A DNA stretch of 64,000 nt from the NCBI GenBank assembly GCA_965113315.1, contig OZ220370.1; one strand, written 5' to 3'. How positions within the stretch are numbered: position 1 is the stretch's first letter; the number at the start of each line of letters is the position of its first letter. Shown here piece by piece: positions 1 to 41,421 of this stretch. Below the pieces are notes generated by a model. That model saw only the letters and a program-made list of their open reading frames with translations. It did no database searches and was not told where the DNA came from. The translations under genes and the position numbers were made by a program. Source of the DNA: Podarcis vaucheri. Its lineage: Eukaryota.

Positions 1-554
1 ATGTCCTGGAAAATAGGAAAGGGGGGGGGAGGGAAATCCATTTTTTTCTCAGTAAGTAGGAGGATTCATTTATTTCACCGGAGTTATTTCTGAGTAAAAC
101 ATATCGAAACCAGTTCTGTTTTATACCCCCTAAATTTCCGCTGAATTAATACCAAACAACATAACTAATAATTGCTCCTTAACATTATCTCAAGCAAAAA
201 TACTGTGCCAAAACAACATTGCTTGCTTTTTCTTTAAATGTCCTGGTTAGATGTGAATAATTGCCATAACATCACTCATAATCAACATTTTGCAACCATT
301 CATTTCTGGAAATGTTTTGGGGGAGGTTCCAGTTTTTAGTAATTTATTTTGCTGTTACTAGCATGTTAATTGCCGGAATGACAGCCTTCTTTTCTAAAGG
401 ATCACTTACATCATTTAGCAGACTATTCATATACATTTTCCCATTGTGTGCTCTTTGTTGTAGTAATTAATGCAGAGTACATGCTGAACTGTAGAGTGTA
501 ATAACTTGGTCTGGGGGGAAATTCTAAACCATTTTTGTTGTTGTTTGTATTTAG

Positions 555-623
555 AATCCTCAGCTGGATGAGGAAACTCTGTTCCAAAATGCTGTTGAGG
601 AATCTTGTCAAGAGAACCTTTGA
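555..623 (+). CDS. RNF138: Last coding exon of E3 ubiquitin ligase RNF138 (C-terminal UIM-like tail)
   Basis: Acceptor ttgtttgtatttag ends at 554, then NPQLDEETLFQNAVEESCQENL-stop. This matches the recalled RNF138 C-terminus (NLQLDEETQYQTAVEESFQVNI), and RNF138 lies just upstream of MEP1B in amniotes. AT-rich 3'UTR with AATAAA (e.g. 690-695) follows. Confidence 0.85.
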   Translation, partial: NPQLDEETLFQNAVEESCQENL

Positions 624-2709
624 AATCTCTAATTTGTTCACATCATTGCTTTCTGCGAGGGGAGAAGCTGCATCAGTGGTCTCAGTGTTAATAAAAGGGA
701 ACCCTTGTATCCAGTTTAACTGTATAGCAGTATTACTTTCCCTTGAATTTATTTTAAAATGCTTTTCATTTAAACTAACAAAAAAGCATGTTATATTATA
801 ATACTTTAATATGGGGTGTTTTTTCCTCCACATAATATTAGAAATATTTCAGATATCTGGCAAAAACGTTACTGTCTTTGAGATAAAGCTATTAAGAGCC
901 ATTTTGCATCATTTGTTTTATTATTTTTAAAGAAGTGTTACACTATAGAGAAAAAAAATTGCACTGGGACAAAGTATTGACATACAGATAGTAAGGACAG
1001 GGTGGTGTTTTTTATTCTTTTTTGGATGAGTTAAATAACTTTTTTTCTATGCTTACTAAATCTATGTTAAAAGCTAAATAAAACCCCAATAATTTCTAGC
1101 CCAATACTATTTTAGCCCCAGCTAATGTTTACATAAAAGAACATGCACACAGGGGTTTTCTCAATGCTGTCAAGAATCTCTTAAGTAGCCACAATCTGGA
1201 GGCTTCCTAGCTATGGCATACTTACTACTTGGCCATTTTCTAGACACCAGCCACTTACTTGTAAAGTAGCCTATCTTAAATTGATAGGTTTAATTTATTT
1301 TATTCAGAGATTGGTTACTGCTTTTTGGATTGTATCATTATTCACTTGAGAAAGTTTATAAAAACTTTTTCCAGTTTAACAAAATTTGGGATAAAAAAGT
1401 CAGAATAATGAGCTGCAAGTATGTTGAAAATACTAACTGACTAAGGAAGTTTTATGGTAAGAAATAAAGAGGTCTTTTATTGGAAGTGCTGTTTTAGGGG
1501 GAAATTGGTCTTGGGCCAATACCAGCTTAATCTGATTTTAGATATGAGCTTTCTGTTAAATTATCTACTGAACACTTGTTTCAAAGCCTAGTCCTGGAAA
1601 CCATGGGAATACCTGTGCATCTTCAAAAGCCATTTTACATTTGAACACTCTAAACATGGGGTTACCACTTCATGAGTCTCAGTGCCTAAACAATCCTTGT
1701 CTAGGAAAGGGTGCAGTTGACATTCCACCCAAAGCTGATGGTAGGCTCTCTGCCATGGAGGCCACAGGGCCTCATTGGACAAAGATTGTTCCATAAATAC
1801 TCCTAAACTCTCTGCATGTTCCTTTAGAGTGCAATCCAATCCAGAGCAGGCAAGTCCCAAATTCTCAGGCAAGGGAATTGGTCATCCAGAGCACCCTTGT
1901 CTTAGCAAAATTCAGCTTCACTTTTTTGGTCCATATCCTACCCACCCTGATTCCAGGCACTGCTTCATCTTGTGCATGCCTTCTTGACTGGGAATTAACA
2001 AAGAGCTGGGTGTCATCAGCACATTGATGACACTGCCCCACGTCTCCTGATGACTGCTTCTGTTGGCTTCATATAGATGTTTAATAACATTGGGGATAAA
2101 ATAGTGTTGTGCAGTACCCCACAACTAAATCACAAGGGTACTGATACATAGTCCCTCAGTACTATTATCTGAGACTGGCCCTGCAAATAGGAGTGGAACC
2201 ACCATAGAGAAGTTCCTTCAACATCCAACTCACAGAAGGTACCATGGTCAGTGGTATCAGAGCTGCAGAGAGATAAGCAAGAGCAACAAAGTTGCACTCC
2301 CCATCTCTCCTCTGGGAAATATTATTCATAAGAACAACCAAGGCTGATTTTGTGTTAAAAAACATCCTGAACCCTTATTGGAGTGGGGGCAGTTAATAGC
2401 TTTCTTCCTAGAGTGTCTACAGCTACATTGCCACAGTCCTGAAGCACCTTGCCCATAAAGGGTATTAGACACTAGGTAGTAGTTGCACTATTGGTATAAT
2501 TAGGAATGAGCAGATTCCCTCAGTACCATGTCATTGTTGCCTCTTGTCTCTGTAGCCTAATGCAATATTAGGTCGCTTTAACAAAAGCTTAGTATGCAAG
2601 TCATTTGTGGTAATAGTTCTACTCTATTCTGTGCTGGTCAGGCTGCCTCTGGAGAACAGAGGTCAGTTCTGAGTGTCTAGCAGAGTGCGATCACGTTAGT
2701 CCCCCCCCC

Positions 2710-5700
2710 TTTTTAATTAATTTTCATTTTTCACATCACTCATATTCACAATACACAAACCATATTGCTTAAAAATATCAACTCAGATTCTTACAGTACA
2801 CTCCAAAAAAATCTTTCCACATATTACCATGCAATCTCAGTGTGTATGTGTGGGTATAAATATAATCTTGATGCATATACTCCAGAAATGGTTGTCACAC
2901 ACAGGAAAGAAAGGGGCTAGAATTCCCTTTGGTTGCATGAATCTGGCACATCAGCTTTTCATCCAGGGCTATTGTCCATGCTTGGAGCACCTATTTCCAC
3001 TGAGAGGAAGAACATTAAGAGTTATTTATGAGCGACTGGTGGAGTAGACATGGTCTTTATTCCAAGTAAAGCAAGTTGAGGGGAAGGTTGTAGGTCCATT
3101 TTGTATATTAAAATCATTTTTTTAAATACCAAAACCCAAAATTGATAAACATGCCCCAAACTTAGGATCTTCCAATTCTATAGCCACTGTTTTCCTCCTG
3201 GATCTTGAATCAAAGACACCAAGACTTGGAATGCCTTATAGTATATAAGCAAGTGGCGCACTCCCAGACCAGATTTTAAATTTATCTTTGCCAAATTTTA
3301 AATTGTTAGGTGTTATAGTTATTGGCAGGAAATAGGCAGGAAAACTTCAGAAGGATCAACATATTCATAGCCACAATGTGGCTCAAGCAAGAAAGGTTTA
3401 GACTTTTCCAGGATTTCAGTTCCTGTCTAACTTGAGATAACAAAGACTCAAAATTTGCTTTCCTTAAAGAGTGCAAGAATTTTGATATAAATATTCCCAG
3501 ATATTTCAGCTTTTGAGGACAGATTGTAAAACCCTCAATGCTTTGTATGAAAGTTTGAGACTGGCAAGACCACAATAAACATAATTTCAGATTTGGTTTC
3601 AGAATTATTCAGTTCTTTAATAACTTCAGGTATTGCCAATTCCGGTTTTGATAATATGAAAGCTATGCCATCTGCAAAAAGGTTAGTATGCATTTTACTT
3701 TATTTTTTTTCACTTTCTATATTCACATTGTTTCTAATGACTGTTGCCAGTGGTTCAATAGACAAGGCAAATAAAAGCAGAGACAAAGGACAATCTTGTT
3801 TTACTCTTTTTAGAGGTTTCTGAGTTGAGACCATTACATAAGACTGTAGCAAAGGAATGTTTGTATACTTCAAAAGTCGAGTTAATAAACCACTCTCATG
3901 TTAAGTCTATACATCAGTGATTTAAAAATGACCAACTCAGCCTGTCAAAGACCTTGTAAAAATCCCATGAGATTATTGCACGTGACTTACCTTTCTTTTT
4001 ACTATAATAAATGACATTCAATAGGTGTCTTACTGGATCCACTATGCCAGCGATACAGAAAGCCTACCTGGTCTGGGGAGATAAAATTTGTAATGAACAC
4101 ATTTAATCTGTTTGCTAAAATGGCTGTATACATCTTAGCTTCTTGGTATAACAGGGCTAATTGGATGCTACAATTCCTCTAGGTCAAGGTTTCTTCTAGC
4201 TTTTGGTAGTACTGTTATTTTAGATTGATGCCAGTAATATGGTGGAAGTTCTGCCAAAAGAACTTCATTAAACAACTTGGCTAGATGGGGAGACAGTTCA
4301 TTTCTAAAATGTTTATAGAACGTTTCTATAAAACTGCCAGCCTCCGGTGCTTTGTATTCTCATAGTTTTTTAATAGCCATTTGCACTTCCTTTAATAGAT
4401 TTACTCAAAGACTGCATATGATCCATTTCTAACTGTTTTAATGAAGTTTATCTAAATAGTCATTGATAGCAAACACAGACGTTGATGGTGAGCTGTGTAA
4501 TTCTGAATAAAATTTATTAAATAATCCACATTTGTCTTTTTCTTTGTACTGAAAAATGCCAAAATCATCTTTTATGTGTAGCACTCTTCTAGAGGCAACC
4601 TTTTGTTTGTTTGTTTGTTAGTTTTTGTTTTTATTAAATATTTTCTTGGTTTAGTACATGCCTTGTCTCTTTTTTCAGGTTATACAGTCTTTCTTGCAAA
4701 TCACTTACATTTGTTGTGATACATTAGTGTTGATACTGTATATAAGGTCGGGGAAGAAAGTGGGAGAGGGTGGGGTGGTGAGGCTTATATTCTTTTATAT
4801 AGTGTACGTGTGAGGTTTTGTGTCAGTGTCAACTGGGTATGTTCTTTTTCTATTTGTTTATTACATTTCCTTGCTAGTGAGAGGTATTGGGGGGCAATAT
4901 TATTTCTTTAGTGAAGGATGTTACGTTACCGTCTTTTTTAGTGACAGTGTATTATTGTTTTGAGTGATTTCCCCCTTGCATCTATTTGCTAAAAGTCTGG
5001 AGTTCTTTCCTCCATATTCGTAAAAGCATTGTTTAGAGAGCATAAGATATTAATCATTGTTTTATTGATTTCTAGAGAGTCAATTTTTGTTCTTTTTTGT
5101 TCTATGAGTTTAAGGAGTTGAGTTTTTTGTTTTGGTTTTTTGCTCCTGCTTGTTTGTAGTGTGATGAGAGGGTTGTAATGTCTTGTTGTAATTTACCATT
5201 TTTTGAGGAGGTTTGCTTTTTAAGAGATGCCCTCTCCTTTATGCAGGCTCCTCTGGTGACCACTTTCATTGTCCTTAAAGGTAGTTTTCAAGAGACTCTC
5301 TCTAGCTAGTTGGTTTGTGGTTAGGATGGGGCTAAAGGACCATGCTGGGGTAGTTTGTGCTTCCTCTCTTGAGGGTAGCTTCTACTGGGGCATGATCTGT
5401 GGTTTTAATGTTACCAATGTATGTTGTTTCTGTGTGAGCAGAATGCTGTCCAGTCAGGACATGGTGCCGGGACATCCAGACTGGAATGTGGCTGGTGTCT
5501 CCCAGGTTCTTTTCTCCCAAGATGTCACAAAGGCCTCAGTTTTTAGCATTTTCAGTAGTTGGTCAGTGTCTCTAATTGTTTGGGGCTTCCCTCTGAGGAA
5601 GGTTGCCCAGGGGGTTGTAGGATGGATGTCTTTTAGGGATGCCTCCCCTGTTGAGGTTGAGGTTACCTCCTAGGATTGTTTACCCTTTGGAGAAGGAATT

Positions 5701-6000
5701 TGTTTAGTGTTTCCTGGATGAACTGTAGTTGTTTTGTGTTTCGGGCATATATGGAGCCAATTGTCAGTTTAGTTTTGCCATTAGCAAAAATGAATCTACC
5801 TTTTTGTGTTTTAGCACTGTTGTGGCTTTAAAATGTAGGCCTCTCCGGGGGCCTTTCCTGAGCGAGGTGCCACCCATTCTTGACTGGACCTGGGTTAGCT
5901 CCGGCTTTTGCTTCCTTTGTGTAGGTTGTGGAAGGCAATGTGTGGTTTCACTCACCAGAACAGACACTTGTGGAACAGAAGTAGAGGTCAAAAACTTTTC
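2710..6000 (-). mobile_element. Decayed L1-clade LINE ORF2 (endonuclease and RT remnants), probably interrupted near 4600-4980
   Basis: Minus-strand fragments: IYARN (IYAPN-like, ~5745), TDHAPV (SDH-type endonuclease motif, ~5390), KAP..FYK (~4340), QDCPLSLLLF (~3790), FAD (~3675) and KYLGI..WKSLNLS (3306-3575). There are many stops and frameshifts, and the boundaries are approximate. Confidence 0.7.
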
Positions 6001-6138
6001 TCTACAAAGGTCATACTTTTTCTCCCTGGCTTTTTGGCTGTATATTTTTTCTGGAAATGATCACTACTTAAAACATCTTTGGTTACTTTATAAAGGCAAT
6101 GCTGCCAAGGGATTGAGAGGTTTGGTAATTTGACACGT

Positions 6139-6242
6139 GGTACTCCACCAAGTTTTACTCAGAGTAGGTCCATTGAAATTAATGGCCCTAACTTAGTCAT
6201 TAATTTCAATGGGTCTATTCTGAGTCAAACTTGTTGAGTACC
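6139..6242. mobile_element. Short palindromic MITE-like repeat
   Basis: Imperfect inverted arms of about 45 bp (ggtactccaccaagttttactcagagtaggtccattgaaattaatg / cattaatttcaatgggtctattctgagtcaaacttgttgagtacc) around a short spacer. Confidence 0.6.
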
Positions 6243-7537
6243 ATCCTTGTTTTCTTCTGAAAATCACATGTAAAAGTTTGATTCTCAGCAGTTGAATGGT
6301 ACAGTATTGACTTTTCCTTTTCTAACTTCCCTAAAAATAATATGATTCAATCACTAGGGGGCACCAAGCACTTTTGAAAGACATTGCTCTAAGATGCAAT
6401 TTTTTAAAAAAATCATTCTGAAAGTGTTTTTGTCCTCTACATTCATTCCACAAGTGCTTGTTCTGGTTTTGTGGTGTTTTTTAATTTGCACATTTTTCAG
6501 TCAAATGTGTGTCTTGTACAGCTTGTGAATATATCTGCATGACAGTACTGCAAATGAAATGTGTTTTCCAAGAGTGTTCACAGTATATAGAAAAGAAGGA
6601 ACGTTTGAAGCCCCATACACAATGCCATTGATCCATCTAGCTCAATATTGTGTACAGTGACTGGGAGCAACTGCAGGATTTTCAAACAGGGAACACTCCC
6701 AGTCCTAGTGGTAGACGTTGAGGCAACAAACATTGCTAGTTTTTTCTATGCAGGATAAGACTGCAGTAAACTGAATTTTAACGCATCTCTGATAAACGGA
6801 ATTTCCCTTTTAGTGTTTTTAGGTTTTCTTAATAACCTTTGGCATGATCATAGAGGCTGCACAAATGTTCCGCAGGAAACAGCCACCATAACCAGAAACA
6901 AAATAATTGTATGTGACAGAACCGGGAAGATTCAAGGCATGCCCATAGGCAAGCTCTCCAACCCAATGTTCTAGAAATACAACCAACAATCACTCTATGT
7001 TGGCACATTGCAACTTACAGGCAACTTAGCAAGACTCCTGTCTTGTTCATCTTGGTAAGGCACGCTGCTATATCTGTGTCAACACAACAATATCAATAGT
7101 GTAAAGCTATGTATTGTGTTTAGACTTAAATTTCTTTCTCTCTTGCACATATGCGGGCACACCACTATGGATACATAACTAGATTGCCCCCTGGCTATTC
7201 CCCCTCCCCCAGCCTTTCCAGTTTTTCAGCATTGACTTGGAACTTTTTATGGGAATGAAATGGCCAGTAACCTGAGTCGTTTGGGGAATCCTCCCATCTA
7301 AACTGTTGTAACAAAGGTCTACCAGATGATGAGGGCAAGAATCAGCCTGTTATAGTGAGTATGAACCTTTTCCCTCACCAGTCTAATGCTAAGCACTGTG
7401 ATACTCCTAGAAACTGCTCCAGAGGTGAATTTAGGGCAGCATGGCTGGTTCTGCCACAGTGGGTGCCAAGCCTTTGGGATGCTGCAAGGGATCGCAACTA
7501 TGATGTCGGGAATTGAGCAGAATGGAAGGTGAGAGGC

Positions 7538-7538
<1 letters not shown>

Positions 7539-7568
<30 letters not shown>
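7539..7568. repeat. (GT)15 microsatellite
   Basis: Read directly from the sequence. Confidence 0.95.
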
Positions 7569-7569
<1 letters not shown>

Positions 7570-9535
7570 GGGCTGAATTTTGTCCTTGCACAGGGCATTG
7601 CTGAAATTTGAAAGACCAAAGTCTGCCCCTGACAGCTCTGCCACAGCACAGCTTTCTGAAGGTCTGGGAAGGTGTGCTTCGTTTAGTCCAGCCCCCCCCC
7701 CCCAATGTTCCAAGGAGCAGTGCAAAATTGCCTGCAGGAAAAGAAAGTAATGCTAAAACTTCACTTAACCTTTTGTGCATACTACAAAGCAGCTTATATC
7801 CAAGAAAGCAGGCAATCTGCAATATATGGCAATGACTAATATAAAAAAAATGCACTGATGCAGTTTGCAGTTTTTGTATTTAATTCCATTTCATTCGACT
7901 GGTTTTATGAGCAGAAGTCTAGCTATGTGCATTAGACTGATTGCATGGATTACATGTGCCTATAATTCCATTTTCAGTTTTATGATCCCATTTACTAGTT
8001 CTCTGAATCTGGTGGCTTTCTCTTGTTAATGTGGGAGAAGTTGATTGGAGAAGGTTATTGATTGCCCTTGTAAGTTTTTCTACCGAATTATGTGGCTTCT
8101 ACTGTTTAAAAAAAAACAATACAGAAAAAGTACAAGTTGAGAGCTGAGTGTTTTTCTTTCAAAATAACTATGCTGAACTCACTTCATAACTGCTGGGAGA
8201 GAGAGGTAAAGAATGAACAATTGGCTTTTGAGTAAGGGAGAAGTACAACATAGGTAGTAAATTATTACAGTATAAGCAATAATTTCATTCATGTTATCTT
8301 CTTGGCAACTGGAATTTATTCTGTTCTTTGTGGGCTATTTGATCTATAGATATTTTTTTTAGCATTTACTTTTCTCTCTAACATAGCAGCCTGCTACTTC
8401 ATCACACACATTAAGGTTGCAATCCTATATATACACTTACCTGAGAGTAGGGATGGGGGAGCAATTTCATTCAGTTTCCATTTCAAAGCCAACCTACCCT
8501 AATTCATGCTTTGTGAAACAATATGACAACCAAAACACAAACATCATTTGAAAGTCACACTTTGAAAGGTCCAAAAGCTGGCATTGAAGATGTATGCCTT
8601 TGTAATGAGATGGGCCCTCTTATGCTAGACATAATCTGTGTTTCTCGTACCTAAGCGTGAGTACAGCTTTGGATGCTGTGCCCACTTTGTTTACTCAAGA
8701 GACAAGGTAGGATTGGCAGTTTCCATTTTGCAAGTGTTACGATAGCCATAACGGCAAGGGTTCTCTTCCCTTCCTGGGAGATGCTCCAGGCTAGGGCTAA
8801 TGTGAGCTCCTCTTCTAGTCATTGGCAGGAAACAGATTTATTTCAGTGGAGTTAATGAAAAAGAGGGTCACCACTGAAAAATCATCAAGCTTGATGAATA
8901 GTTAACCCATAACACTATCTGGATAAGCCATCACGTAATAGTACTGATAGGGGTGGAGTCGATTGCAGTGTGATCCTGACCAAGGCGTTCCCATAACAGT
9001 AATTGAAGGGAAATGTAGGCAACACAGACAAAATCTGATGAAGGATTTTAAGATTGGCTTCACTTCTACAAAGATTAGCAGTGATGATCAATGCCATTGG
9101 TTTGGACCTATAGAGGTCATGGATCTGATATATAGGATCCTGGAACTAGGCTGATCAAGGTAACCAGAGAGATTTTGAGGAGGGGAGAAATTAAATGTAC
9201 TGTGTCCAAAATTCTGTCAGCGTAAGCATTTCAGCTTCCCAAATGGAATGATCCCTGCTCTCCTTCCCCTAAATGTTCTGGGTTTCCCCCCCCAAACTTA
9301 AGCTGAATGTGGCTGTGCAAATAACTGAGTCTTTGTCTAGGTTCATTATGAAGATACCTCGTTTGAGGCATCGCATTTGGTTACTTCCACCATCTTTATC
9401 CAATGAGAAGTATATAAAGGTAGAAGAAGACCAATCAACAGTCGTTTTATTCTGGCACTGATGTTCGATGAAAAAGCTGAAATGCCCTCTTGCTTCATTC
9501 TGTCAAAAGGTATATATCAAACACCTGCAATACAA

Positions 9536-9576
9536 AGGTCAAAGTTTTCATTTATGATGGCACTCTAGATATAAAT
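9536..9576 (+). promoter_or_regulatory. Putative MEP1B proximal promoter: DR1/HNF4-like site, CDX-like site and TATA box
   Basis: AGGTCA-A-AGTTTT (9536-9548), TTTATGA (9551-9557) and TATAAAT (9570-9576), 45-85 bp upstream of the ATG at 9621. Confidence 0.55.
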
Positions 9577-9620
9577 GCACAAAAATTAAAAGATTACAGC
9601 TCTTACTGAAGTTGTACATC

Positions 9621-9683
9621 ATGGATTTGTGGCTATTTTATGTGCTTCTGAGCGGGGTTATTTTGCAGATAGTTTGCTGTCTG
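9621..9683 (+). CDS. MEP1B: Meprin A beta exon 1 (signal peptide)
   Basis: MDLWLFYVLLSGVILQIVCCL, 63 nt, donor GTAAG, phase 0. MDLW start as recalled for mammalian MEP1B. Confidence 0.9.
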
Positions 9684-10317
9684 GTAAGACAATAAAAAGC
9701 ATACTTTAATTCTTAAGGATTAAGTGAATTAGCACATTTGTATTTAATGTGCATATTTTTTTAAAATGCCAATAGTTTCTGTAAATCGGGGCCAGGGGTC
9801 ATAATTATTGGGGTTGCAGTGGGGAGAGAGAGTTTAATCATTTCCTCCTTGGCTGTGGTTCTGACAAAAATCACTCTTTTGGAGTTAACGTCTGCCCAAG
9901 ATTGCATGCTTCTCCCTCCCTTCACTTCTGGTGCAGCCACAAGGATGAGATCAGAAGCTTTTGCTTCCAACTTACACAACAGTTTAGCATTGTGGCTTAA
10001 CCTAAACTGTGGTTAATTTTATCTATGCCAGAAAAGAAGGGGGACGTGCATGAGCCTAGGGGCAGGTTATGTTGGTTCCCATCACAGTAAATATGCAGCC
10101 TCTGTCTCTGTGTGTTCTGTCCCCTATTTTAGAGTAGTTGTTTTATATATCAAAAGCTAAAACAATTTTAAAAGTTTTCAAAGTGTAATTATGCAAATAC
10201 AAAAAAAGAACAACAAGCTTGCATTGTTATAAGTTGTTAATGAATAAATATCTGAAATAACATTTGTACCATAGTGTTATTTCTACTTGGATCCTCTCAC
10301 TTATTATAATGGTATGT

Positions 10318-11379
10318 TGTAGTGAAGTTGCCATTGTTAGAAAAATCATTCCTTGGTCAAGAAGACGAGTGTGGCCTTGTGGGTATTTTGTCAGCCGCAA
10401 GGACCCTGGGAAAGTGAGTTGTGTATCTTTAAAACCCAGACTTTCTGGCTCCTTGCCATGAGAGGTTTATGGGAGGAAAGGGGTCCTTGATTAATGGAAG
10501 GTTTGGCACCTGGGTTGTGGGTGTGAATCTCTTCCTCCTTCCCGGAGGTTGTTTGTTTTCAAACTGCTGAGAATTGGGGATCTGGTTAATTTCCACAGGT
10601 GGGAGGAAGATTCTTTGATTAAGGGTTCAAGCCTAAATTGACCCAGCTGCAAAAGAATGAGCTGATCAAATTAAGACTCTTGATTGGCCAAAAGTTACGA
10701 CGCAAAGTCAGAATTGTGGATAAAAGATCCAGGGATGTCTTGTTAGTTGCTCTCTGCCATTGCAAAATGCTAGATGCCATTGCTCTGCAATCCGCAAAGA
10801 TGCCCGGCTGTAAGCTCCATCGTTAACAGCCGTTTCGTCCTTTTGAAATGGAAATCCTCTACCAGCTTCATTATACAACATCTTGAAAGGACTCTTGACT
10901 ATTCTAACTGTGGTCTCTTTGTGAGTATGTACGAGCTAGTCATACTGTACAATGTTATTGTTTTCATGTTTGTAAGACTCTTAAGAAGTGCCTGTGGTTT
11001 TACCACAAGTTTTCAGTTTTCTTTTTAAAATAAAAACTTTTAATTTAGAACCGGTTAGTGTGTTGGTGCCTTTTCCGGGGAACAGCTAAATCCAAGCCTT
11101 CTGCTTAGTCACGCTATACCGAGTGAACTTCTGCCTGCAAGCTTGTGGATGCAGCTTGTAAGGAGTGGGGATTGCCAGGGTAATTGGACACACTCTCCTC
11201 CCTGGGTGGTGTCTCTGGAATTCCCTGAACTAAAGGGAGTGGTGGCAGCCTTACCGGTGTGATTTCAGTCTGTGTTTGAAAAGTAGCTTCCCTCGCCAAC
11301 CTATTCCAGGAACCTGAATTGGCCGGAGAGCAGAGTCAGGGAGGGGGGAATAGGGTGGACGAGTGGAACCGTTACTACA
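10318..11379 (+). repeat. 5' LTR (1062 bp)
   Basis: TGTAGT...ACTACA inverted termini. Reverse CCAAT (ATTGG, ~10683), TATA-like GATAAAAG (10719-10726), AATAAA (11029-11034) followed by a GT-rich tract. Confidence 0.96.
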
Positions 11380-11397
11380 TGGTGGCAGCGGTGGGAT
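11380..11397 (+). other. Primer binding site complementary to the tRNA-Leu 3' end
   Basis: TGGTGGCAGCGGTGGGAT directly after the 5' LTR. Its reverse complement ATCCCACCGCTGCCACCA matches the recalled 3' end (with CCA) of vertebrate tRNA-Leu(AAG/TAG). Confidence 0.9.
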
Positions 11398-11501
11398 CTA
11401 GAACTTCCCTGCGGAAAAGCACTGTAACGTTTTAAAAATAGTTTGGCACGTATCTTTTGTGGCTTACAAACGGTTTATTATTTTGGATAGAGATAGTTAG
11501 G

Positions 11502-14500
11502 ATGGAGGACTCTTTAGCAACTGGACAACAATCCATGAAAACTATTGATGAATGGGGGGTAGTAGGAGGAGCCAGTACCCTGCCGGTGGAAACCAACCCC
11601 ATCAGGACTCCAAGTCCTAGTGAAAAGTCCGCGTCGTGGTATTCCGATGGGTCCCAGGAGGAGCTGGTGGATTCCAGCATCCCAGAGACGATTCGGAGGG
11701 GTCAGCAAAAGACCTGTCGTGTGGAAGGAGGGAGGGCTGCGCTGGAGTGCCAAACCCAAACTCCTCGTGAGGAGGTGCAAGGAGAGACAGCTTCTGCACG
11801 TCCTAGGGAAAATTTTCCTGTTTACACAGAGTCCAGGGAGATGGATTTCTCAGAGGGACTTGATGTGGAATGGATTCGTGATCCAGTGGACGGTGGATTC
11901 CGTTCCAGAGAGAAGTGTCCAAAAGTCGGTGGGGCTATTCGTCTAGCACCAAGATACGACCGGATGGCGTATGATTCTCAAAGTTTGCAGCAACAGCAGC
12001 AAGAGGTGACGGAGAGAGGCTACAGCCGAGGGGCATATGCGCCGGATGTACGCAGGAAGGTGGGACAGCCTTCGTTTAGCCCGGGAAAGACCTACTCGCC
12101 CGTCAATGCTCAACCGCTTCATGTGCCGGTGCGTCGGTATGTGGTCGAGGAGGAGGAGTTCTACCAGAGACCTCAGCGTGAATATGCAACAGCAGCGGAA
12201 CCGCGACGCCCGGATGGGTGGTTGCCGCCTAGCAGAGTTCTAAGGTATGAACCGGTCCCTGTGCAGGGGGGAAACCAGCAACAACCGTCCCCTCCAGGAC
12301 TGACTTTAAATAACTTAAATTGGAGGGTGTTTCAGAAATACCAACCTCCCACTGATGTACTGTGTTACCTAAATCTTTTTGAGAAAACTTGCAAGGACAT
12401 GGGGGTTGCACCAGAACTGTACATGATGGTTTTGCGTTCCCTGGTTTGTGGGGATTTGTCCGAACTAATGGGAACTCTTCCCCAAGATGACCAAAATGAC
12501 TATGAGAAATTTAAAAGACTAGTTATGCGACGGCTTGGATTACACCCTGAGCAATACAGAAAAGCTTTTCGGAAGGTGGAGAAAGGTGGGCTCACTGATA
12601 ACATAGCCGTTTTCTCTGCAAAGATGGCTCAGAATTTTGAACTGTGGCTTGCAGCCGAGGGGGCTCAGGACGCGAAGGATATCAAGCAGCTCCTGCTAAT
12701 TGAGCAGTTGATGAGGTCCCTGTCCCCTGATATTGCTAGCTTGGTTGCAGACCAAAAGCCGCGAACTTTGGAGGAAGCTACCTCCTTTGCTGAGTCCTTT
12801 AGGATTAATCGTCCCCATTGGGCTGCTAAAGGGGGGAACAGTGCTAATAGACCTATGATTGGGTCTGGAAGATCTGCCCCCCCCATCAAAGAACCTAGCC
12901 CAGGTATTCCAACCCCTGCTAAAAACTCTGCTGCAACAGGGGGAGAGCGTCCGAGGTTGTCCCCGGCATCTGGACTGTGTTTCTTGTGCAAAAAGCCGGG
13001 ACACGTGAAAGCCGCTTGTCCCCAGTTGGGGGATAAAAAGCCCCCCATCCTCACATCCACTCCCGCCGTGCGAATGATCCAGCGGCCGGAGGAAGATTGG
13101 GAGGAGGAGCAATTAAAATCCGGAGTGGAGCAGAGTTTGGCTTTGAAGGAGGGTGGGGCAACGCCTAAAGCGGAAACACCTGCTGTCCCAATAACTGCTG
13201 TTAATGTGGGTCCGGTGAGTGCGGGGAGTAAATTCAAAACCCCCCATGTGAACTGGGCAAAGTTGGAGTTTTCTGCCCCTATTGAAGTCAATAAAACTGT
13301 TGTGGAATCGTATCGGGACTCTGGCTCAGACATTACAAGTGTATCTAGAGATCTGGTCCTGCCTAGTCAAATGCAGACAAAGCCTCTGAAAATTAGTCCA
13401 TATGGGGTGGAGGAGATTTATCAGCCAACAGCAATAGTCCCCCTTAAATACAAAGGCTATAGTGGGGACCATTTGGTGATTGTTCACGACCCACAAGTTT
13501 GCAAAAGCCCAGTCTTGGTTGGAAACGACCTTGGGTTTCAAGTTTACCTACAACAACAAACCAAGGTGAATCCGGTAACTGTAGCACCTGCCCCCACCTT
13601 AATTCAGGCAGGGACAGACTTTGTTGAGCCTGAGACAGGGTTGGATGGAAAACCCGGAGAGGAGGGAGAGTTACCAATCCTGGATATGGAACACACAAAG
13701 AACTTTGATGCCCCTGGTGAACTGGGGGATTTGGGTGAGTTTGCTGCGGAACAACAAGCAGACCCCTCCTTGCAGGTTTGCAGGGAGGCGGTTGGGGCCC
13801 CCCTGCGGGGAGAGAAACGGGCCCAATTTGTGTATAAAAAAGGCCTTTTGTATCGGCAGTTCATTCCAAAAAAGGTGAAGGACAAAGACTTTGTTTTACA
13901 ACTAGTGGTTCCAGCAAAGAAGCGGTCAACTGTTCTCAGTTTGGCACATGAGGATGGCTTAGCTGGCCATATGGGACTACAAAAAACTGTAGAAAAACTG
14001 ACTCGATATTTCTACTGGCCTGATGTATATCAAACAACTAAAGCATACGTACGCTCTTGTGTAGTATGTCAAAAGGTGGGGCATGATTGTGATAATCTCC
14101 CCAGTGAGTTACAGAGTGTCCCCTTGGAAGCAAATGTTCTGGAGAAGTGGGGTATTGATTTAGTGGGACCTTTACCAAAAACCCGCTCAGGAAAGCAATA
14201 TTTGTGTATAATCATTGATTATGCCTCTCGTTATGTCTGGGGGACGAGTTTAGCTAACACTTCTGCTAACAACCTGGTGAAAGCTTTACTCTCTGCCTTT
14301 TGCTCTTTAGGAATTCCTAAAGTTTTGGTGAGCGACTTGGGAACTAATTTCATGGCTAAGGTAACTCAGGAGGTTTTGCGAATGTCTGAGGTGCGCCACC
14401 ATACCTCTATTGCTTATCAGCATCAAGGAAATGGGTTGGTGGAGAGAGTGCAAAAGACCTTAGTCCAGATGTTACGTAAATATGCTTTGGCTCACGGTTC

Positions 14501-16490
14501 CAGTTGGGATCAGGATTTGCCTTTGGTGGTGGCTGCTTATAACGACTCCCATCAAAGAAGTTTGGGCTTTGCACCAAATCAGTTAATTTTTGGAAGGTTT
14601 CTGAATACCCCTCTCTCAATGCTGCGCAAGGAGTGGGAAGGGTCTGAGGAGGAGATAAAGTTACCTTCCGTCAGTGAATATTTTGCCCAACTTAAAGGAA
14701 CCTTAGCAGATGTATGGAAATTGGCCAAAGAGAATTTAGAGAATGCCCGATTAGATCAAAAGAAGGTACATGATACCAGAGCGGTGTGCAAACAGTTCGA
14801 GGTGGGAGACCAGGTGTGGATTTTGCGTCCGTCCCGTCCTCACAAATTGGATGTGAAATGGCAAGGTCCGGGTGTTGTAGAAGCAAAACTGAGCTCTGTG
14901 CGTTATCTGGTGAGCTGCAAGGAATTGCACCCCACTGCTCGGGAGTATCATGCAAATTCTTTAAAGAGGTATGCAGAACAAAAGATCTCTGTGCTGGCCA
15001 TTTCACAGAGTCAGGAGGAGGTGCCCTCCTCGCCTGTTGATCTTTTAACTGAGTATAAACAGGCTGGAGCAGTTTCTGATGTGTTGCAGTTGCCGACTTT
15101 AAGTGAAACTCAGACTAAAGAGCTTTATGAGGCACTGCTACCTTACAGTAACACCTTCAGTACAAAGCCGGGTAGGACTCACCTGGCTCAGCATCATTTT
15201 GTTACGGGGGACTCCCCCCCTATTGCCTCACGTCCTTACCGAGTTGGTGAAGCTATTGCACAGAACATTGAAGCCGAAGTGAAAGAAATGTTGGAACTGG
15301 GGGTCATAGAGCCTAGTAAGAGTGCTTGGGCCTCCCCTATAGTGCTGGTTCCAAAACCTGATGGCTCCATTCGCTTCTGTGTTGATTACAGAAAGATAAA
15401 CATGATTACTGTCCCTGATGTGTTCCCTCTGCCTAGGATTGACACGCTGATAGAGAAGCTGGGATGTGCGAAATTTATTACTGTTATGGATTTGACCAAA
15501 GGGTATTGGCAAATCCCTTTGTCCCCTGAAGCTTCTGAAAAGTCTGCCTTTACCACTCATGTAGGCTTGTACCAGTTTAAAGTGCTACCATTTGGATTGC
15601 GAAATGCTCCTGCAGCTTTCCAAAGGTTGATTAACTCCTTGATTCATGACATGAGTGAGTTCTGTTGTGCTTATTTGGATGATCTAGCTGTTTTTTCCGA
15701 ATCATGGCCAGAACACCTTAAACACCTGCAGAGAGTTTTGGCCCGGTTGCAAGAAGCAAACTTGACTGTAAAAGTGTCTAAATGCCAGTTTGCTCAAGGA
15801 GAAGTGGTGTATTTGGGATTTAGAGTTGGGTCTGGAAGCATTAAAACTCTGGAGGCTAAGATACAATGTATTCAAGAGTGGCCTCGCCCTGTGGTGAAAA
15901 AAGACGTGCAGTCCTTCATAGGGTTGGTAAATTATTACAGGCGGTTCATCAACCACTTTTCAACCCTGGCAGCTCCTCTCACCAACCTTTGCAAGAAATC
16001 CTTGCCAGTTAAGATAGAGTGGAATGAAGAGTGCCAAAGAGCTTTTGATTTGTTGAAACATGCACTGGTGAGCAATCAAGTCATGTTGGCCCCAGATCAG
16101 AGTCGGCCGTTTAAAGTACAGACGGACGCCAGTCAAACTGGATTGGGTGCCGTTTTGTTACAAGAAGATCAAGAGAAAAATTGGCGTCCCGTGGTTTATC
16201 TGAGTAAGAAATTGATAACCAGGGAACAAAATTATTCTACCATTGAAAAGGAGTGTTATGCTTTAGTCTGGGCTCTAACTAAACTGCGTCCCTATCTGTG
16301 GGGTACTTTCTTTGAGGTCCAGACTGATCACTCTCCACTGTGTTGGTTGGAAAGAGTAAAAAGTTCTAACCAGAAATTGGCCAGATGGAGTATGGCCTTG
16401 CAAGATTTCCAGTTTAAGGTCACTCACATTGCTGGAAAAGAAAATGTGGTTGCTGACACCCTTTCTAGGATGTACCAATCTGTTCCATGA
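11502..16490 (+). CDS. Gag-Pol polyprotein, 1662 aa from the first ATG: capsid with SCAN-like CTD, CCHC knuckle, protease, integrase, RT, RNase H
   Basis: ATG in good Kozak context (aggATGg). CFLCKKPGHVKAAC (12978-13019), protease RDSG (~13317), integrase HHCC plus D..D..E (GIDLVG, SDLG, VERV; ~13947-14970), RT YLDD (15672-15683), RNase H TDAS/EKE/TDH/ADTLSR. No stops or frameshifts. Confidence 0.96.
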   Translation: MEDSLATGQQSMKTIDEWGVVGGASTLPVETNPIRTPSPSEKSASWYSDGSQEELVDSSIPETIRRGQQKTCRVEGGRAALECQTQTPREEVQGETASARPRENFPVYTESREMDFSEGLDVEWIRDPVDGGFRSREKCPKVGGAIRLAPRYDRMAYDSQSLQQQQQEVTERGYSRGAYAPDVRRKVGQPSFSPGKTYSPVNAQPLHVPVRRYVVEEEEFYQRPQREYATAAEPRRPDGWLPPSRVLRYEPVPVQGGNQQQPSPPGLTLNNLNWRVFQKYQPPTDVLCYLNLFEKTCKDMGVAPELYMMVLRSLVCGDLSELMGTLPQDDQNDYEKFKRLVMRRLGLHPEQYRKAFRKVEKGGLTDNIAVFSAKMAQNFELWLAAEGAQDAKDIKQLLLIEQLMRSLSPDIASLVADQKPRTLEEATSFAESFRINRPHWAAKGGNSANRPMIGSGRSAPPIKEPSPGIPTPAKNSAATGGERPRLSPASGLCFLCKKPGHVKAACPQLGDKKPPILTSTPAVRMIQRPEEDWEEEQLKSGVEQSLALKEGGATPKAETPAVPITAVNVGPVSAGSKFKTPHVNWAKLEFSAPIEVNKTVVESYRDSGSDITSVSRDLVLPSQMQTKPLKISPYGVEEIYQPTAIVPLKYKGYSGDHLVIVHDPQVCKSPVLVGNDLGFQVYLQQQTKVNPVTVAPAPTLIQAGTDFVEPETGLDGKPGEEGELPILDMEHTKNFDAPGELGDLGEFAAEQQADPSLQVCREAVGAPLRGEKRAQFVYKKGLLYRQFIPKKVKDKDFVLQLVVPAKKRSTVLSLAHEDGLAGHMGLQKTVEKLTRYFYWPDVYQTTKAYVRSCVVCQKVGHDCDNLPSELQSVPLEANVLEKWGIDLVGPLPKTRSGKQYLCIIIDYASRYVWGTSLANTSANNLVKALLSAFCSLGIPKVLVSDLGTNFMAKVTQEVLRMSEVRHHTSIAYQHQGNGLVERVQKTLVQMLRKYALAHGSSWDQDLPLVVAAYNDSHQRSLGFAPNQLIFGRFLNTPLSMLRKEWEGSEEEIKLPSVSEYFAQLKGTLADVWKLAKENLENARLDQKKVHDTRAVCKQFEVGDQVWILRPSRPHKLDVKWQGPGVVEAKLSSVRYLVSCKELHPTAREYHANSLKRYAEQKISVLAISQSQEEVPSSPVDLLTEYKQAGAVSDVLQLPTLSETQTKELYEALLPYSNTFSTKPGRTHLAQHHFVTGDSPPIASRPYRVGEAIAQNIEAEVKEMLELGVIEPSKSAWASPIVLVPKPDGSIRFCVDYRKINMITVPDVFPLPRIDTLIEKLGCAKFITVMDLTKGYWQIPLSPEASEKSAFTTHVGLYQFKVLPFGLRNAPAAFQRLINSLIHDMSEFCCAYLDDLAVFSESWPEHLKHLQRVLARLQEANLTVKVSKCQFAQGEVVYLGFRVGSGSIKTLEAKIQCIQEWPRPVVKKDVQSFIGLVNYYRRFINHFSTLAAPLTNLCKKSLPVKIEWNEECQRAFDLLKHALVSNQVMLAPDQSRPFKVQTDASQTGLGAVLLQEDQEKNWRPVVYLSKKLITREQNYSTIEKECYALVWALTKLRPYLWGTFFEVQTDHSPLCWLERVKSSNQKLARWSMALQDFQFKVTHIAGKENVVADTLSRMYQSVP

Positions 16491-16685
16491 AACATGAATG
16501 TGTATTCTGTCAACATCTTCTGCTGAGAAATTATCCTGAAACTGTGTAAATAGTGGATTGGGGGGGGTGCTATTAGTGTGTGTGATTTAAAAAAAGCTGT
16601 TGAAAAAACCCCTGGTCCAAGAAAATCTACCTCATTGTAAAAATAGTTTTGAGAGAATAGAGGGACTTAACCCTATATTCTCTCT

Positions 16686-16696
16686 AGGGGGGAGCG
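16686..16696 (+). other. Polypurine tract
   Basis: AGGGGGGAGCG immediately before the 3' LTR. Confidence 0.85.
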
Positions 16697-17758
16697 TGTA
16701 GTGAAGTTGCCATTGTTAGAAAAATCATTCCTTGGTCAAGAAGACGAGTGTGGCCTTGTGGGTATTTTGTCAGCCGCAAGGACCCTGGGAAAGTGAGTTG
16801 TGTATCTTTAAAACCCAGACTTTCTGGCTCCTTGCCATGAGAGGTTTATGGGAGGAAAGGGGTCCTTGATTAATGGAAGGTTTGGCACCTGGGTTGTGGG
16901 TGTGAATCTCTTCCTCCTTCCCGGAGGTTGTTTGTTTTCAAACTGCTGAGAATTGGGGATCTGGTTAATTTCCACAGGTGGGAGGAAGATTCTTTGATTA
17001 AGGGTTCAAGCCTAAATTGACCCAGCTGCAAAAGAATGAGCTGATCAAATTAAGACTCTTGATTGGCCAAAAGTTACGACGCAAAGTCAGAATTGTGGAT
17101 AAAAGATCCAGGGATGTCTTGTTAGTTGCTCTCTGCCATTGCAAAATGCTAGATGCCATTGCTCTGCAATCCGCAAAGATGCCCGGCTGTAAGCTCCATC
17201 GTTAACAGCCGTTTCGTCCTTTTGAAATGGAAATCCTCTACCAGCTTCATTATACAACATCTTGAAAGGACTCTTGACTATTCTAACTGTGGTCTCTTTG
17301 TGAGTATGTACGAGCTAGTCATACTGTACAATGTTATTGTTTTCATGTTTGTAAGACTCTTAAGAAGTGCCTGTGGTTTTACCACAAGTTTTCAGTTTTC
17401 TTTTTAAAATAAAAACTTTTAATTTAGAACCGGTTAGTGTGTTGGTGCCTTTTCCGGGGAACAGCTAAATCCAAGCCTTCTGCTTAGTCACGCTATACCG
17501 AGTGAACTTCTGCCTGCAAGCTTGTGGATGCAGCTTGTAAGGAGTGGGGATTGCCAGGGTAATTGGACACACTCTCCTCCCTGGGTGGTGTCTCTGGAAT
17601 TCCCTGAACTAAAGGGAGTGGTGGCAGCCTTACCGGTGTGATTTCAGTCTGTGTTTGAAAAGTAGCTTCCCTCGCCAACCTATTCCAGGAACCTGAATTG
17701 GCCGGAGAGCAGAGTCAGGGAGGGGGGAATAGGGTGGACGAGTGGAACCGTTACTACA
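16697..17758 (+). repeat. 3' LTR (1062 bp)
   Basis: Same sequence as 10318-11379 by eye. The ORF-track peptides within both LTRs are identical at a constant offset of 6379. Confidence 0.96.
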
Positions 17759-18526
17759 TATGTGTTCTAATATAACAAACTAGCTAAACTGTATGGTACA
17801 AGAGGCTAGTATAAACCACAGTGTTGTATCTATAGAACAACACAATAGACAAACGGCACACCAGCTATTTTAATATCCTTATTATGAAGTGTGGGTAATG
17901 AATATATTTTAATGATCCAGTATTTTCATATATGCTAGGTTATGTGTAATATCCCAGTATCCTACTGACCAATAATTAATTTTGTTTAAAAACCTAATCC
18001 AAGCTCCAGTGATTTTCTTGAGCTGAGGCCTGGGAAATGATGCTGTGTCCTTTTTTGCACCTCCATAGGCACACCATTCTCTTGTTTGGTACAACACTAG
18101 TTCCTCTTCCTTTCCAGTTGTGAAAGTGTAGGATTATGGAAAAAGAAATTCTCTTTAACTGTTCTGTGATAGAATGAGTATTAGGGAATTTAATCCCAGC
18201 TCCGTGCAATTGCTAAGCACACCAGCAGGAATATTATCACCACAGTATATAAATATATTAACAAGAGAAAGCAACAGTTAACCAAGATTTTTAAAATATA
18301 GCAAGAAACGGGGTTTAGTCCCATGTCTCAGGTAGAACATGTTTTCATATATGCACAGAAAATCATAGGTGTATAATATTGCATTGAATCTGACTTTAAA
18401 CTTTTGATGCAAAACTTGCCAGATGAATTTGGCTGATAGAATGGCTGCACTTGCCATTAGGTATCACCTGTAATCTGCAAAGAACAGATTGCACATCTGA
18501 CTGTTTCCTCCTTTCTTTTATTCTAG

Positions 18527-18545
18527 CCTGTTCAAGAACTACAGG
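18527..18545 (+). CDS. MEP1B: MEP1B exon 2 (19-nt micro-exon)
   Basis: Strong acceptor ctttcttttattctag, PVQELQ-G, donor GTGAGT. It bridges phase 0 to phase 1 as the flanking exons require. Confidence 0.8.
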
Positions 18546-19775: not shown

Positions 19776-19826
19776 AAAGAAATGAAGACAGTGGAATAGA
19801 TCAAGATATCTTTGATATCAATGAAG
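19776..19826 (+). CDS. MEP1B: MEP1B exon 3 (propeptide)
   Basis: ERNEDSGIDQDIFDINE, with the meprin propeptide motif DIFDIN. The donor GTTTTT is weak. Confidence 0.9.
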
Positions 19827-19934
19827 GTTTTTTTCCAGCCTAATGTTTTAATTATTATTGTCTTTTATAATAGTGTGTGTGTGTGTGTGATCATGGATTA
19901 AAATGCACTAACCTGCTGTGGGTTTCTTTTTTAG

Positions 19935-22167: not shown

Positions 22168-22548
22168 GTACGGCAGTTACGTAATTTCTTAAGATCACTT
22201 GTTGCAGAAGCAACCTTCAGTATGAACATTTGTTCTTTTCTTCAGTATTAATTTTGGTGGTATATTTGCTAAGATTTGGGGTAAAAGGCGTACTTCATAA
22301 GAACAAATAGGATATAATTTCTTAAGCTTTTATTTTTACCAACAATTAAAAAAGGTATATTACAAACCCCACCTTTCAGTACAGAAATATGGAAAAAAAT
22401 AAACTTCAGCATTTGATAAAAATGCAAGCTCAACTTGTAAATAAAACCAGCTAGGTCTGTATGTGGAAGGTAACAGCGCTAGCCAGGAATTCCAAAAAGT
22501 TGTAAAGGATACATCTGGTTTAGTCAAACCTTGGACAGATATGCTATA

Positions 22549-22755
22549 CAGTTGTACCTCTGGTTATGAACTTAATTCATTCCAGAGGTCCGTTTTTAAC
22601 CTGAAACTGTTCTTAACCTGAGGTACCACTTTAGCTAATGGGCCCTCCCGCTGCCGCTGCTGCTCAATTTCTGTTTTCATCCTGAGGTAAAGTATCCGAG
22701 GTACTACTTATGGGTTAGCTGTAACCCGAATTGTTTGTAATCCAAGGTACCACTA
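22549..22755. mobile_element. Tigger/pogo-like MITE (orientation A)
   Basis: TA followed by CAGTTGTACCTC...GGTACCACTA termini. The interior is shared with copies at 22897, 56234 and 58914. Confidence 0.75.
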
Positions 22756-22896
22756 TCTTTCATTATAAGCAATGTGCCATGAGTCAGCAAAGCAGTTATG
22801 AGTTTTCTATCAGATTTTTATGAGCTGTCAGAAGAGATGACTCCTCCAGATTCTCTTTTCTTACAGCGTGGAACAAGAACAACAGGACAATGCATA

Positions 22897-23111
22897 CAGT
22901 GGCACCTTGGGTTACAGACGCTTCAGGTTACAGACTCCGCTAACCCAGAAATAGTACCTCAGGTTAAGAACTTTGCTTCAGGATGAGAACAGAAATCGCA
23001 TGGCGGCAGCAGGAGGCCCCATTAGCTAAAGTGGTACTTCAGGTTAAGAACAGCTTCAGGTTAAGAATGGACCTCCAGAACGAATTAAGTTCTTAACCTG
23101 AGGTACCTCTA
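22897..23111. mobile_element. Tigger/pogo-like MITE (orientation B)
   Basis: TA followed by CAGTGGCACCTT; reverse-complement similarity to 22549-22755. Confidence 0.75.
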
Positions 23112-23958
23112 ATAAAGAGTTGAAATTGGGCTCTGTAAGCATCTTAGGGTTCTGGCCAGGACCCTAGAGGTCTGATGCGCAAGCAGTGGGTTTGGGTTGA
23201 CTGCTTGGATGTTTAAGCTATGCCTCATTAAGCTCAGCCAGTATGCAAACAGGAGTATAAATATTACACTCCAATATTACGACTCACCAGTAAGCTTCTA
23301 GTGACCTCCTTCTAAAAGAAAGCAAGCCTTGATGAAAATTGCAGTGTCTTAGCTGCTCAGAGATTTGGGGTGAGGGTAGCAATGCAAAGAAATAGAGGCG
23401 AAATATTGCCCAACTTCCAAATTTACAACAAGCTCCACTTACGCTGTCTGTAGTAATAAAGTAATTATGTCATTATTTTGCGCCTTCTCTCAAACTCAAA
23501 AGTGCCAATTTGGGATTAACAGTGAAGATCTGGTTGCTTATCACTTTATAAGATGCTGCAGCCAGATTGGTGACCGGAGCCAGTTACAGGAAGAACAGAA
23601 ACTCAGTGTTAAAACAGCTCTACTGGATCCCAGTACATTTCAGAGTATAATGGCTTGGAAAATAGAACTAGTTGCTTAACTTGAAGGCTTGTAGCAAATC
23701 AACAGTCCAAGGAAGCAAAAGAGAAATTTGTAGAGCAAATTGGGTTACTTCTAAAATAGGTATTCATAGTCCACTTTCCTATGCTAAAGGCATACTTGAA
23801 AAGGCTTTAATAATTCTCCCAACAATTTAAATTATATTAGTCGACCAAATTTATACTCATTAGTACTAATAGCAGAGTTTCCAGTTGCTATGTGGAGGGT
23901 TAGCTGAAAGGGCATCCCTTTAGGTGAGCGATAACCAATTCTTTGTTTTTTCTTCCAG

Positions 23959-26364: not shown

Positions 26365-27239
26365 CCGTATTTTTCGCCCTATAGGACGCACTTTTTCCCC
26401 TCCAAAAATGAAGGGGAAATGTGTGTGTGTCCTATGGGGTGAATGCAGGCTTTCGCTGAAGCCTGGAGAGCGAGAGGCGTCGGTGCGCACCAGGCTTCAG
26501 GAGAGCCCCGTCGCCAGCCTTTCGCACTGTCCCCCGACTTGGCTAGAAGGCTGGCGGGGGGAGAAGCCTGCTCCTCCCCGTCGCCAGCCCCGCAAACTCG
26601 GGGGACAGCGGGAGAGGCGCAGCGCGCCTTTTGCACTGTCCCCCGACTTGGCTAGAAGGCTGGCGGGGGGGGGAGAAGCCTGCTCCTCCCCGTCGCCAGC
26701 CCCGCAAACCCGGGGGACAGCGGGAGAGGCGCAGCGCGCCTTTCCCGCTGTCCCCCGACTTGGCTAGAAGGCTGGCGGGGGGGAGAAGCCTGTTCCTCCC
26801 CGTCGCGAGCCCCGCAAACTCGGGGGACAGCGGGAGAGGCACAGCGCGCCTTTCCCGCTGTCCCCCGACTTGGCTAGAAGGCTGGCGGGGGGGGAGAAGC
26901 CTGCTCCTCCCCGTCGCCAGCCCCGCAAACTCGGGGGACAGCGGGAGAAGGCTGGCGGAGGGCTTTCCCCTCCTCCAGCCCCGCAAGCTCCCAGAGTGAT
27001 GCCAAAGCTGCACGCAGCTTCCACATGGCTCTGGGTCCCGTTCTGGGGGCTGGGGGAGGGGGAAGCTCCGCTTTCCTCTCCTCCAGCCCCGCAAGCTCCC
27101 AGAGCGATGCCAAAGCTGCCAACGCTCGAGCTTCCCCAGCCCCTTGCCTGGGGGGGGGATGAATTTTTCCCCCTTTATTTCCCCCCCAAATCTAGGTGCG
27201 TCCTATGGGCCGGTGCGTCCTATTAGGCGAAAAATACGG
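26365..27239. mobile_element. Non-autonomous Tc1/mariner-superfamily (Tc2/pogo-like) element with an internal tandem array
   Basis: 27-bp TIRs CCGTATTTTTCGCC(CT/TA)ATAGGACGCAC, TA TSDs at 26363-64 and 27240-41. Confidence 0.85.
26517..26950. repeat. GC-rich minisatellite, ~110-bp unit, about 4 copies
   Basis: gtcccccgacttggctagaagg recurs at 26529, 26638, 26750 and 26860. Unit length varies with a G-run. Confidence 0.9.
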
Positions 27240-41228: not shown

Positions 41229-41421
41229 ATGCCCTGTAGGTGCAGATTGGTGGTATGTGGGAGAAAAATGCGAGCAGAAGGGATCCACACAGGACACAGT
41301 TGTGATAGCAGTTGCCTCGTCTCTGTCTATATTTGCCGTTATGTTGATCATCACCATTGTAACGACCAGCTGCATTAAAAAGAAATATAGGGAAAAAATG
41401 GAAAGCCTGGGTTTACAAAAT
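41229..41421 (+). CDS. MEP1B: MEP1B exon 14 (EGF end, transmembrane helix, cytoplasmic tail)
   Basis: CPVGADWWYVGEKCEQKGSTQDTVVIAVASSLSIFAVMLIITIVTTSCIKKKYREKM...LQN, 193 nt, donor GTAAGT. Confidence 0.95.

Follow-up and report, generated by a model that had tools for sequence, protein, structure and literature searches.

A full-length LTR retrotransposon, probably inserted very recently, lies in sense orientation in the first intron of MEP1B, the meprin beta gene, within the 64,000-nucleotide stretch of Podarcis vaucheri DNA analysed here (the window). Judged from its sequence it is an ordinary kind of insertion, which carries a credible poly(A) signal and a chance-level splice acceptor. The first-pass annotation had read the LTR as a possible natural gene trap that could reduce or abolish meprin beta expression. 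The sense orientation, the position and the poly(A) signal would make some early termination of transcripts plausible, but the proposed route from exon 1 to LTR position 10599 depends on a weak acceptor. At a probability of roughly 0.55, most transcripts still have exon 1 spliced to exon 2, which would make the allele leaky, mildly hypomorphic or near-neutral. Any loss would likely be due to partial cleavage at the poly(A) signals of the LTRs and not to trapping at 10599. Reduced expression of meprin beta is plausible from the DNA, and its abolition unlikely.

The host gene and the inserted element

The gene model was built by mapping the MEP1B protein of Podarcis lilfordi onto the window. It comprises 15 exons (9621-42917, plus strand) with 694 codons, GT-AG boundaries in all 14 introns, no internal stops and the zinc motif. 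Residues identical to the P. lilfordi protein number 682 of 697, the remainder being 12 replacements and a 3-residue tail gap; with Zootoca as the outgroup, seven replacements fall on the P. vaucheri branch and five on the P. lilfordi branch. The gap corresponds to three cytoplasmic-tail codons of exon 14 (41229-41421) that are missing relative to both P. lilfordi and Zootoca. Astacin, MAM and MATH domains were identified by Pfam, and an EGF domain and a membrane anchor are also present. The MAM/MATH exon matched PDB structures of meprin beta at E 1e-65 and of meprin alpha at 1e-32, and the best single-copy protein match was P. lilfordi MEP1B (96%), followed by Zootoca vivipara (92%). A pseudogene or second copy was ruled out by the presence of one intact copy. 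The coding sequence shows no decay; since the insertion is very young, none would be expected even from a null allele, and the intact frame is therefore uninformative on that point.

The order RNF138-MEP1B-GAREM1 also fits the assignment. Upstream, a putative last exon on the plus strand (555-623) is taken from synteny to be that of RNF138; tblastn with RNF138 gave no confirmation at this site. On the minus strand, a CABIT-domain exon (54532-55476; Pfam) and a last exon that matches PDB 2dkz (60672-61913) belong to what we take to be, likely, GAREM1.

A TATAAA box at 9570-9575, 51 nt before the ATG, is the likely MEP1B core promoter as judged from its sequence. The coding part of exon 1 (9621-9683, 63 nt) specifies 21 residues, all identical to P. 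lilfordi MEP1B and likely a signal peptide, and its donor at 9684 scores 5.1. Exon 2 (18527-18545) is the 19-nt micro-exon that had been annotated; its pyrimidine run is 16 nt long and its donor is strong, and with a summed splice score of 12.9 it ranks second among 13 internal exons. Exons 3-15 (19776-42917) were placed by the P. lilfordi protein. The exon 3 donor (19826-19832), followed by a 108-nt intron, scores only -2.8, yet it is required by the protein alignment, which shows the limits of the matrices used below.

The element occupies 10318-17758 (7,441 bp), 634 bp past the exon 1 donor, between two copies of the 5-bp target-site duplication TATGT (10313-10317 and 17759-17763). Intron 1 is 8,843 nt long and would measure 1,397 nt minus the element and one target duplication, so that the annotated position and the expansion from about 1.4 to 8.8 kb were both confirmed. 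The 5' and 3' LTRs (10318-11379 and 16697-17758; 1,062 nt, TG...CA) differ at no position, and the exact repeat runs for 1,063 nt through one shared base past the CA. A primer-binding site, assigned from its TGG start and its position directly 3' of the 5' LTR, was placed at 11380-11397. We presume that it matches the 3' end of tRNA-Leu; a tRNA scan of the window returned no genes with which to compare it. A polypurine tract (16686-16694) precedes the 3' LTR. Between these lies a single unbroken gag-pol frame (11502-16490, plus strand), whose 1,662 codons are counted from the first Met. It encodes, in order, a SCAN-like capsid domain, a zinc knuckle, a protease motif, integrase, reverse transcriptase (RT) and RNase H, with Pfam matches to PF02023 (residues 369-454, E 4e-9), integrase (823-993), RVT_1 (1303-1462) and RNase H (1527-1656). 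The catalytic motifs are in place and the element is intact. Only 206 nt separate the end of the frame from the 3' LTR, which leaves no room for env. No TATAWA box was found in the LTR, and no other copy or solo LTR was found in the window by blastn. The identical LTRs make a very recent insertion likely, which would date from no more than about 0.7 million years ago.

Based on domain order, the element is classed as a Gmr1-like LTR retrotransposon of the Ty3/Gypsy type. Beside the TG...CA LTRs, target duplication, primer-binding site and polypurine tract, it has an integrase upstream of RT-RNase H and a SCAN-like capsid C-terminal domain in gag. An endogenous retrovirus (Retroviridae) was ruled out by the integrase lying before RT-RNase H and by the absence of env. 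No match bearing the name Gmr1 was present among the 120 matches listed. Of those matches, three P. muralis entries (P0122, P0155 and P0160) were 95-96% identical over pol, and two of them diverge from the element frame in their own middle part; other relatives, from gecko, turtles and Anolis, reached 43-54%, and one Zootoca entry reached 61% over part of its length. The three P. muralis entries were also aligned in search of joins at splice sites of the LTR or of the element's interior, but none of the entries extended into the LTR. The order SCAN-like capsid, protease, integrase, RT-RNase H has been described for Gmr1-like (Gmr1/Osvaldo) elements of Ty3/Mdg4 (bioRxiv 10.1101/2025.03.03.638093), with which the present element shares its domain order, single frame and lack of env. 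The same preprint reports that such elements are depleted in reptile genomes other than those of turtles, whereas here an intact and very young one is found in a lacertid. The identical LTRs, the unbroken frame and the 95-96% P. muralis relatives together suggest that a Gmr1-like family has been active in lacertids until recently. The searched passages of PMC12801592 and PMC4131045 gave no information on how Gmr1 elements are spliced or on their primer sites, and the literature search on Podarcis repeats and on truncation by intronic gypsy elements found nothing specific.

The LTR poly(A) signal and candidate internal exons

The annotated AATAAA hexamers at 11029 and 17408, each with a GT-rich element, were recovered, and their context is better than chance. 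In the 5' LTR the signal region (10928-11074, plus strand) consists of TGTA motifs at 10928, 10946 and 10971, all three within 101 nt upstream of the hexamer, a T-rich run, AATAAA at 11029-11034 and, 18 nt downstream, a GU-rich stretch at 11053-11074. When all 106 AATAAA hexamers on both strands of the window were ranked by a context score of four features, 11029 was joint second, tied with its twin at 17408. The first-ranked hexamer is found 368 nt past the stop of the minus-strand, likely GAREM1, last exon and serves as a rough internal positive control. The score is a blunt tool, as the likely true MEP1B 3' hexamer (43798) ranks only 25th of 106. By its sequence context 11029 is a competent signal and likely the real poly(A) signal of the element. 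Every LTR would be expected to carry a working one, and it is therefore no special adaptation.

Polymerase from the MEP1B promoter would read the 5' LTR together with its whole upstream part, as element RNA reads the 3' LTR, and we infer from this that the signal at 11029 would be competent in the host transcript also. U1 protects about 1 kb downstream of a donor, and pseudo-donors extend this range (PMC3826338). The hexamer and the exon 1 donor are 1,346 nt apart, just past that distance, and the donor-like sites at 10311, 10413 and 10598 (scores 3.3, 4.4 and 4.6) could extend the protection. The second of these (10411-10419, plus strand; last exonic base 10413) lies 616 nt upstream of the hexamer, scores slightly above the native median of 4.3 and is a possible U1 landing site. 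Avoidance of the 5' poly(A) site by retroelements is known to take place in three ways, in addition to that of foamy viruses, in which a donor upstream of the signal is the place where U1 represses the 5' site (PMC3694450). The MEP1B LTRs likewise have donor-like sites upstream of the hexamer; those at 10413 and 10598 stand 430-620 nt from it, whereas the foamy R region is 193 nt long (PMC3694450). Use of the 5' LTR signal under read-through depends on the element's own way of protecting its RNA.

It is likely, from these features, that the LTR signal cuts short a share of MEP1B transcripts, while the strong sites of exon 2 would win most splicing events. The leaky allele favoured here is further supported by the host introns themselves, which hold 17 sense AATAAA hexamers, two of them in intron 1 (9691 and 10243), in a gene that appears free of decay. 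Against it, a strong poly(A) site lies 430 nt past 10598, where it could define a terminal exon.

A strong loss of meprin beta, caused by read-in to the LTR signal or by internal exons of the element, is considered unlikely. The good poly(A) context speaks for it, as does the best candidate cassette pseudo-exon (14311-14360, plus strand), which is 50 nt long and frame-shifting and would bring a stop at codon 28. The acceptor at 14311 is the strongest in the element (8.3-8.4), and with its donor (8.4 + 4.6) the candidate reaches 12.9, equal to the second-best of the 13 real exons. A precedent is given by the OCA2 and CLCN2 alleles of the corn snake, in which three fragments of an element are spliced into the mRNA (PMC4657000, PMC11948899). 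Five pseudo-exons scoring at least 12 nevertheless go unused in native introns 2-14, and 14311 lies inside gag-pol, where the element RNA would have to avoid splicing. Nor is the element denser in such candidates: at a score of at least 10 it contains one in 7.44 kb, as against 11 in the native introns (22.4 kb), a count that agrees with the leaky reading.

Two further arrangements were noted at the 3' end. If the CAG|GT of the 3' LTR is taken as a donor, it pairs with an acceptor-like site around the polypurine tract to give a 290-nt candidate exon (16688-16977) with a score of 8.6. An ATG in the 3' LTR (17528-17542) is followed after three codons by a weak donor (1.7 for its 5' twin) that would join exon 2 in frame; a transcript started in the LTR might by this route encode pro-meprin beta without the signal peptide, although the case for it is weak.

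The proposed acceptor at 10598

The AGs ending at 10598 and 16977 were confirmed, as was the predicted product of splicing exon 1 to 10599, namely the 21 residues of the putative signal peptide followed by VGGRFFD and a stop (10620-10622). The candidate acceptor (10567-10604, plus strand) has the form CAG|G, with a branch-like CTGAG 28 nt before it (10567-10571) and an AG-free zone of 27 nt. Its upstream tract is G-rich, with 10 pyrimidines in 17 positions compared with 11-16 in 15 native acceptors.

Acceptors were scored with a local matrix trained on the 15 acceptors of the window (14 of MEP1B and one of the putative RNF138), with natives scored leave-one-out. Because the local matrix undervalues G at +1, two generic matrices built from general vertebrate frequencies were added. 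The scoring is crude, being founded on 15 sites or on general frequencies rather than on MaxEntScan or a neural model. With the local matrix 10598 scored -0.8, below all 15 natives (0.9 to 15.8); with the generic matrices it scored 3.2 and 3.6, above three and five of the 15, respectively. The exon 2 acceptor scored higher in all three (7.2 local; 7.1 and 4.4 generic). Unused AGs scoring at least as high in introns 2-14 (22.4 kb) numbered 172 of 1,566 with the local matrix and 68 and 47 of 1,566 with the generic ones, and 35 of 548 AGs within the element did so with the local matrix. An equally good site was present in all 500 shuffles of the LTR (local matrix); when LTR bases 1-711 were shuffled 1,000 times, 808 and 740 of the shuffles had one (generic matrices). 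Splice-site scoring, which the first-pass annotation had named as a check, thus placed 10598 at chance level and below the exon 2 acceptor, and as a weak call the site is not distinguishable from chance look-alikes. In these crude models it lacks the strength to outcompete the next exon that a gene trap needs, while the insertion of the element in sense within an intron of a gene that is otherwise intact is as a trap would have it. Masking of the acceptor by secondary structure was rejected, its mean unpaired probability of 0.38-0.44 falling inside the range of 14 native acceptors (0.20-0.72).

In a true trap, exon 1 would be joined to 10599 and the RNA would end near 11050, giving a dead product of 28 residues and a strong loss of meprin beta. 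Several features are consistent with this. Beside its branch-like motif and AG-free zone, 10598 outranks every other YAG of the 5' LTR ahead of AATAAA by the generic matrices, the native 5' portion of intron 1 (39 AGs) has none that beats it in one of them, and it would be transcribed about 8 kb ahead of exon 2. The donors between it and the hexamer are weak (0.6 and 0.1), as suits a terminal exon, and all three frames after 10599 close within 14 codons. The short VGGRFFD product is itself unremarkable, since an in-frame stop follows within eight codons of 240 of the 765 unused YAGs in introns 2-14. When the 48-codon LTR frame spanning 10598 was compared with proteins to catch annotated chimeras, the one candidate gave no hit, and no protein of the searched set carried that frame, which is a weak test because the added peptides would be short. 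Given the chance-level score, the G-rich tract, the stronger acceptor of exon 2 in all three matrices and the fact that the same CAG|GT scores as a donor above the native median, a true trap is judged improbable. The same weakness of 10598 argues for a leaky allele, together with the look-alikes of introns 2-14, which are skipped in the gene model; native acceptors that are equally weak, with three to five of the 15 lower in the generic matrices, are in use and argue against it.

Effects through chromatin were weighed as well. Silencing is known to spread from young LTR elements and could in this case reach the MEP1B promoter, or the LTR could act as an enhancer or competing promoter. Only 748 bp separate the TATA box (9570) from the LTR (10318), and the observed/expected CpG ratio of the element (0.44, as compared with 0.29 in host DNA) offers targets for methylation. 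Spreading is usually short and variable, and the chances of such an effect are put as low.

Finally, exon 1 might be joined to the CAG|GT at 10598, regenerate a donor there and then be joined to exon 2, yielding normal mRNA, but such a ratchet is highly improbable. The tandem acceptor-donor AG|GT is present, with both halves weak, and has the geometry defined for ratchet points (PMC8605326). As a donor, 10598 scores 4.6, above the native median of 4.3 (n=14), and the junction of exon 1 with 10599 would regenerate a donor of 2.4, which equals the second-lowest of the 14 native donors and exceeds the LTR donors between 10598 and the hexamer. An intronic YAG followed by GT arises by chance in 47 of 796 cases, the acceptor is weak, and true ratchet points are described as rare in mammals and as lying in long introns (PMC8605326). 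Very little weight can likewise be given to a splice switch, in which the CAG|GT of the LTR would capture the upstream exon and then either ratchet to the next exon, leaving no trace of the element in the mRNA, or end at the LTR poly(A) signal; if it did operate, a recently active lizard Gmr1 family would tune rather than destroy the genes that it entered, and a wild hypomorph of meprin beta would be the first case. Apart from these schemes, the donor-like site at 10413 and the acceptor at 10598 bound a possible intron of 185 nt, should transcription of the element start upstream of 10413.

Comparison with known insertions and other repeats of the window

The mechanism considered here is a textbook one. 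Truncation of host genes by sense LTR elements is well known, also in snakes. That sense intronic LTR elements truncate host transcripts through an acceptor and poly(A) signal, or through cassette exons, is established, and a functional acceptor is needed in mutagenesis by endogenous retroviruses (PMC1794541). Of the mutagenic intronic ETn insertions in mouse, 15 of 18 are sense (PMC1794541), an analogy that would count against a leaky allele. Like mouse ETn/MusD, the MEP1B insertion is a full-length, sense, intronic LTR element with acceptor-like and poly(A) signals (PMC1794541). The mouse sites are used in vivo and are predicted to be strong, whereas the candidate LTR acceptor in MEP1B is at chance level. 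ETn/MusD elements are, moreover, retroviral, in contrast to the Ty3/Gypsy type found here. Engineered gene-trap cassettes consist of a selected strong acceptor and a poly(A) signal. With these the insertion has in common an acceptor, a stop and a poly(A) signal in series behind a first exon, and it differs in that its acceptor is below most native ones.

The closest squamate parallels are amel (OCA2 intron 11) and stripe (CLCN2 intron 5) of the corn snake, where a recent full-length LTR retrotransposon likewise lies in an intron and can donate exons with early stops, as could the candidate exon of the MEP1B element (PMC4657000, PMC11948899). The corn snake element is a Copia of 5,832 bp with three internal cassette exons seen in cDNA and a mapped phenotype (PMC4657000, PMC11948899), and its listed domain coordinates suggest an antisense orientation; the MEP1B element is Gmr1-like, sense and read from its DNA. 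A recently active Gmr1-like family in lacertids would be a possible source of trait variation, as Copia is in corn snakes (PMC11948899).

No paper joining MEP1B, a lizard and a retrotransposon was found in the open literature, and the supplements of lizard genome papers may list the element. Mice null for Mep1b are viable but under-represented (PMC4545420). As such mice live, an allele that lowers MEP1B could persist and be studied in populations differing in diet. Should the present allele indeed lower meprin beta, a wild lizard would carry a natural loss-of-function variant of a protease of gut and kidney.

Other repeats were also identified in the window. A GC-rich tandem repeat with a unit of about 111 nt and at least four copies lies in MEP1B intron 6 (26517-27005). 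Dispersed repeats of 100-220 nt, in both orientations and with 75-94% identity, are located at 22545-23117, 56260-56481 and 58910-59141, and at 37110-37350 and 39490-40512; these are likely SINE or LINE ends.
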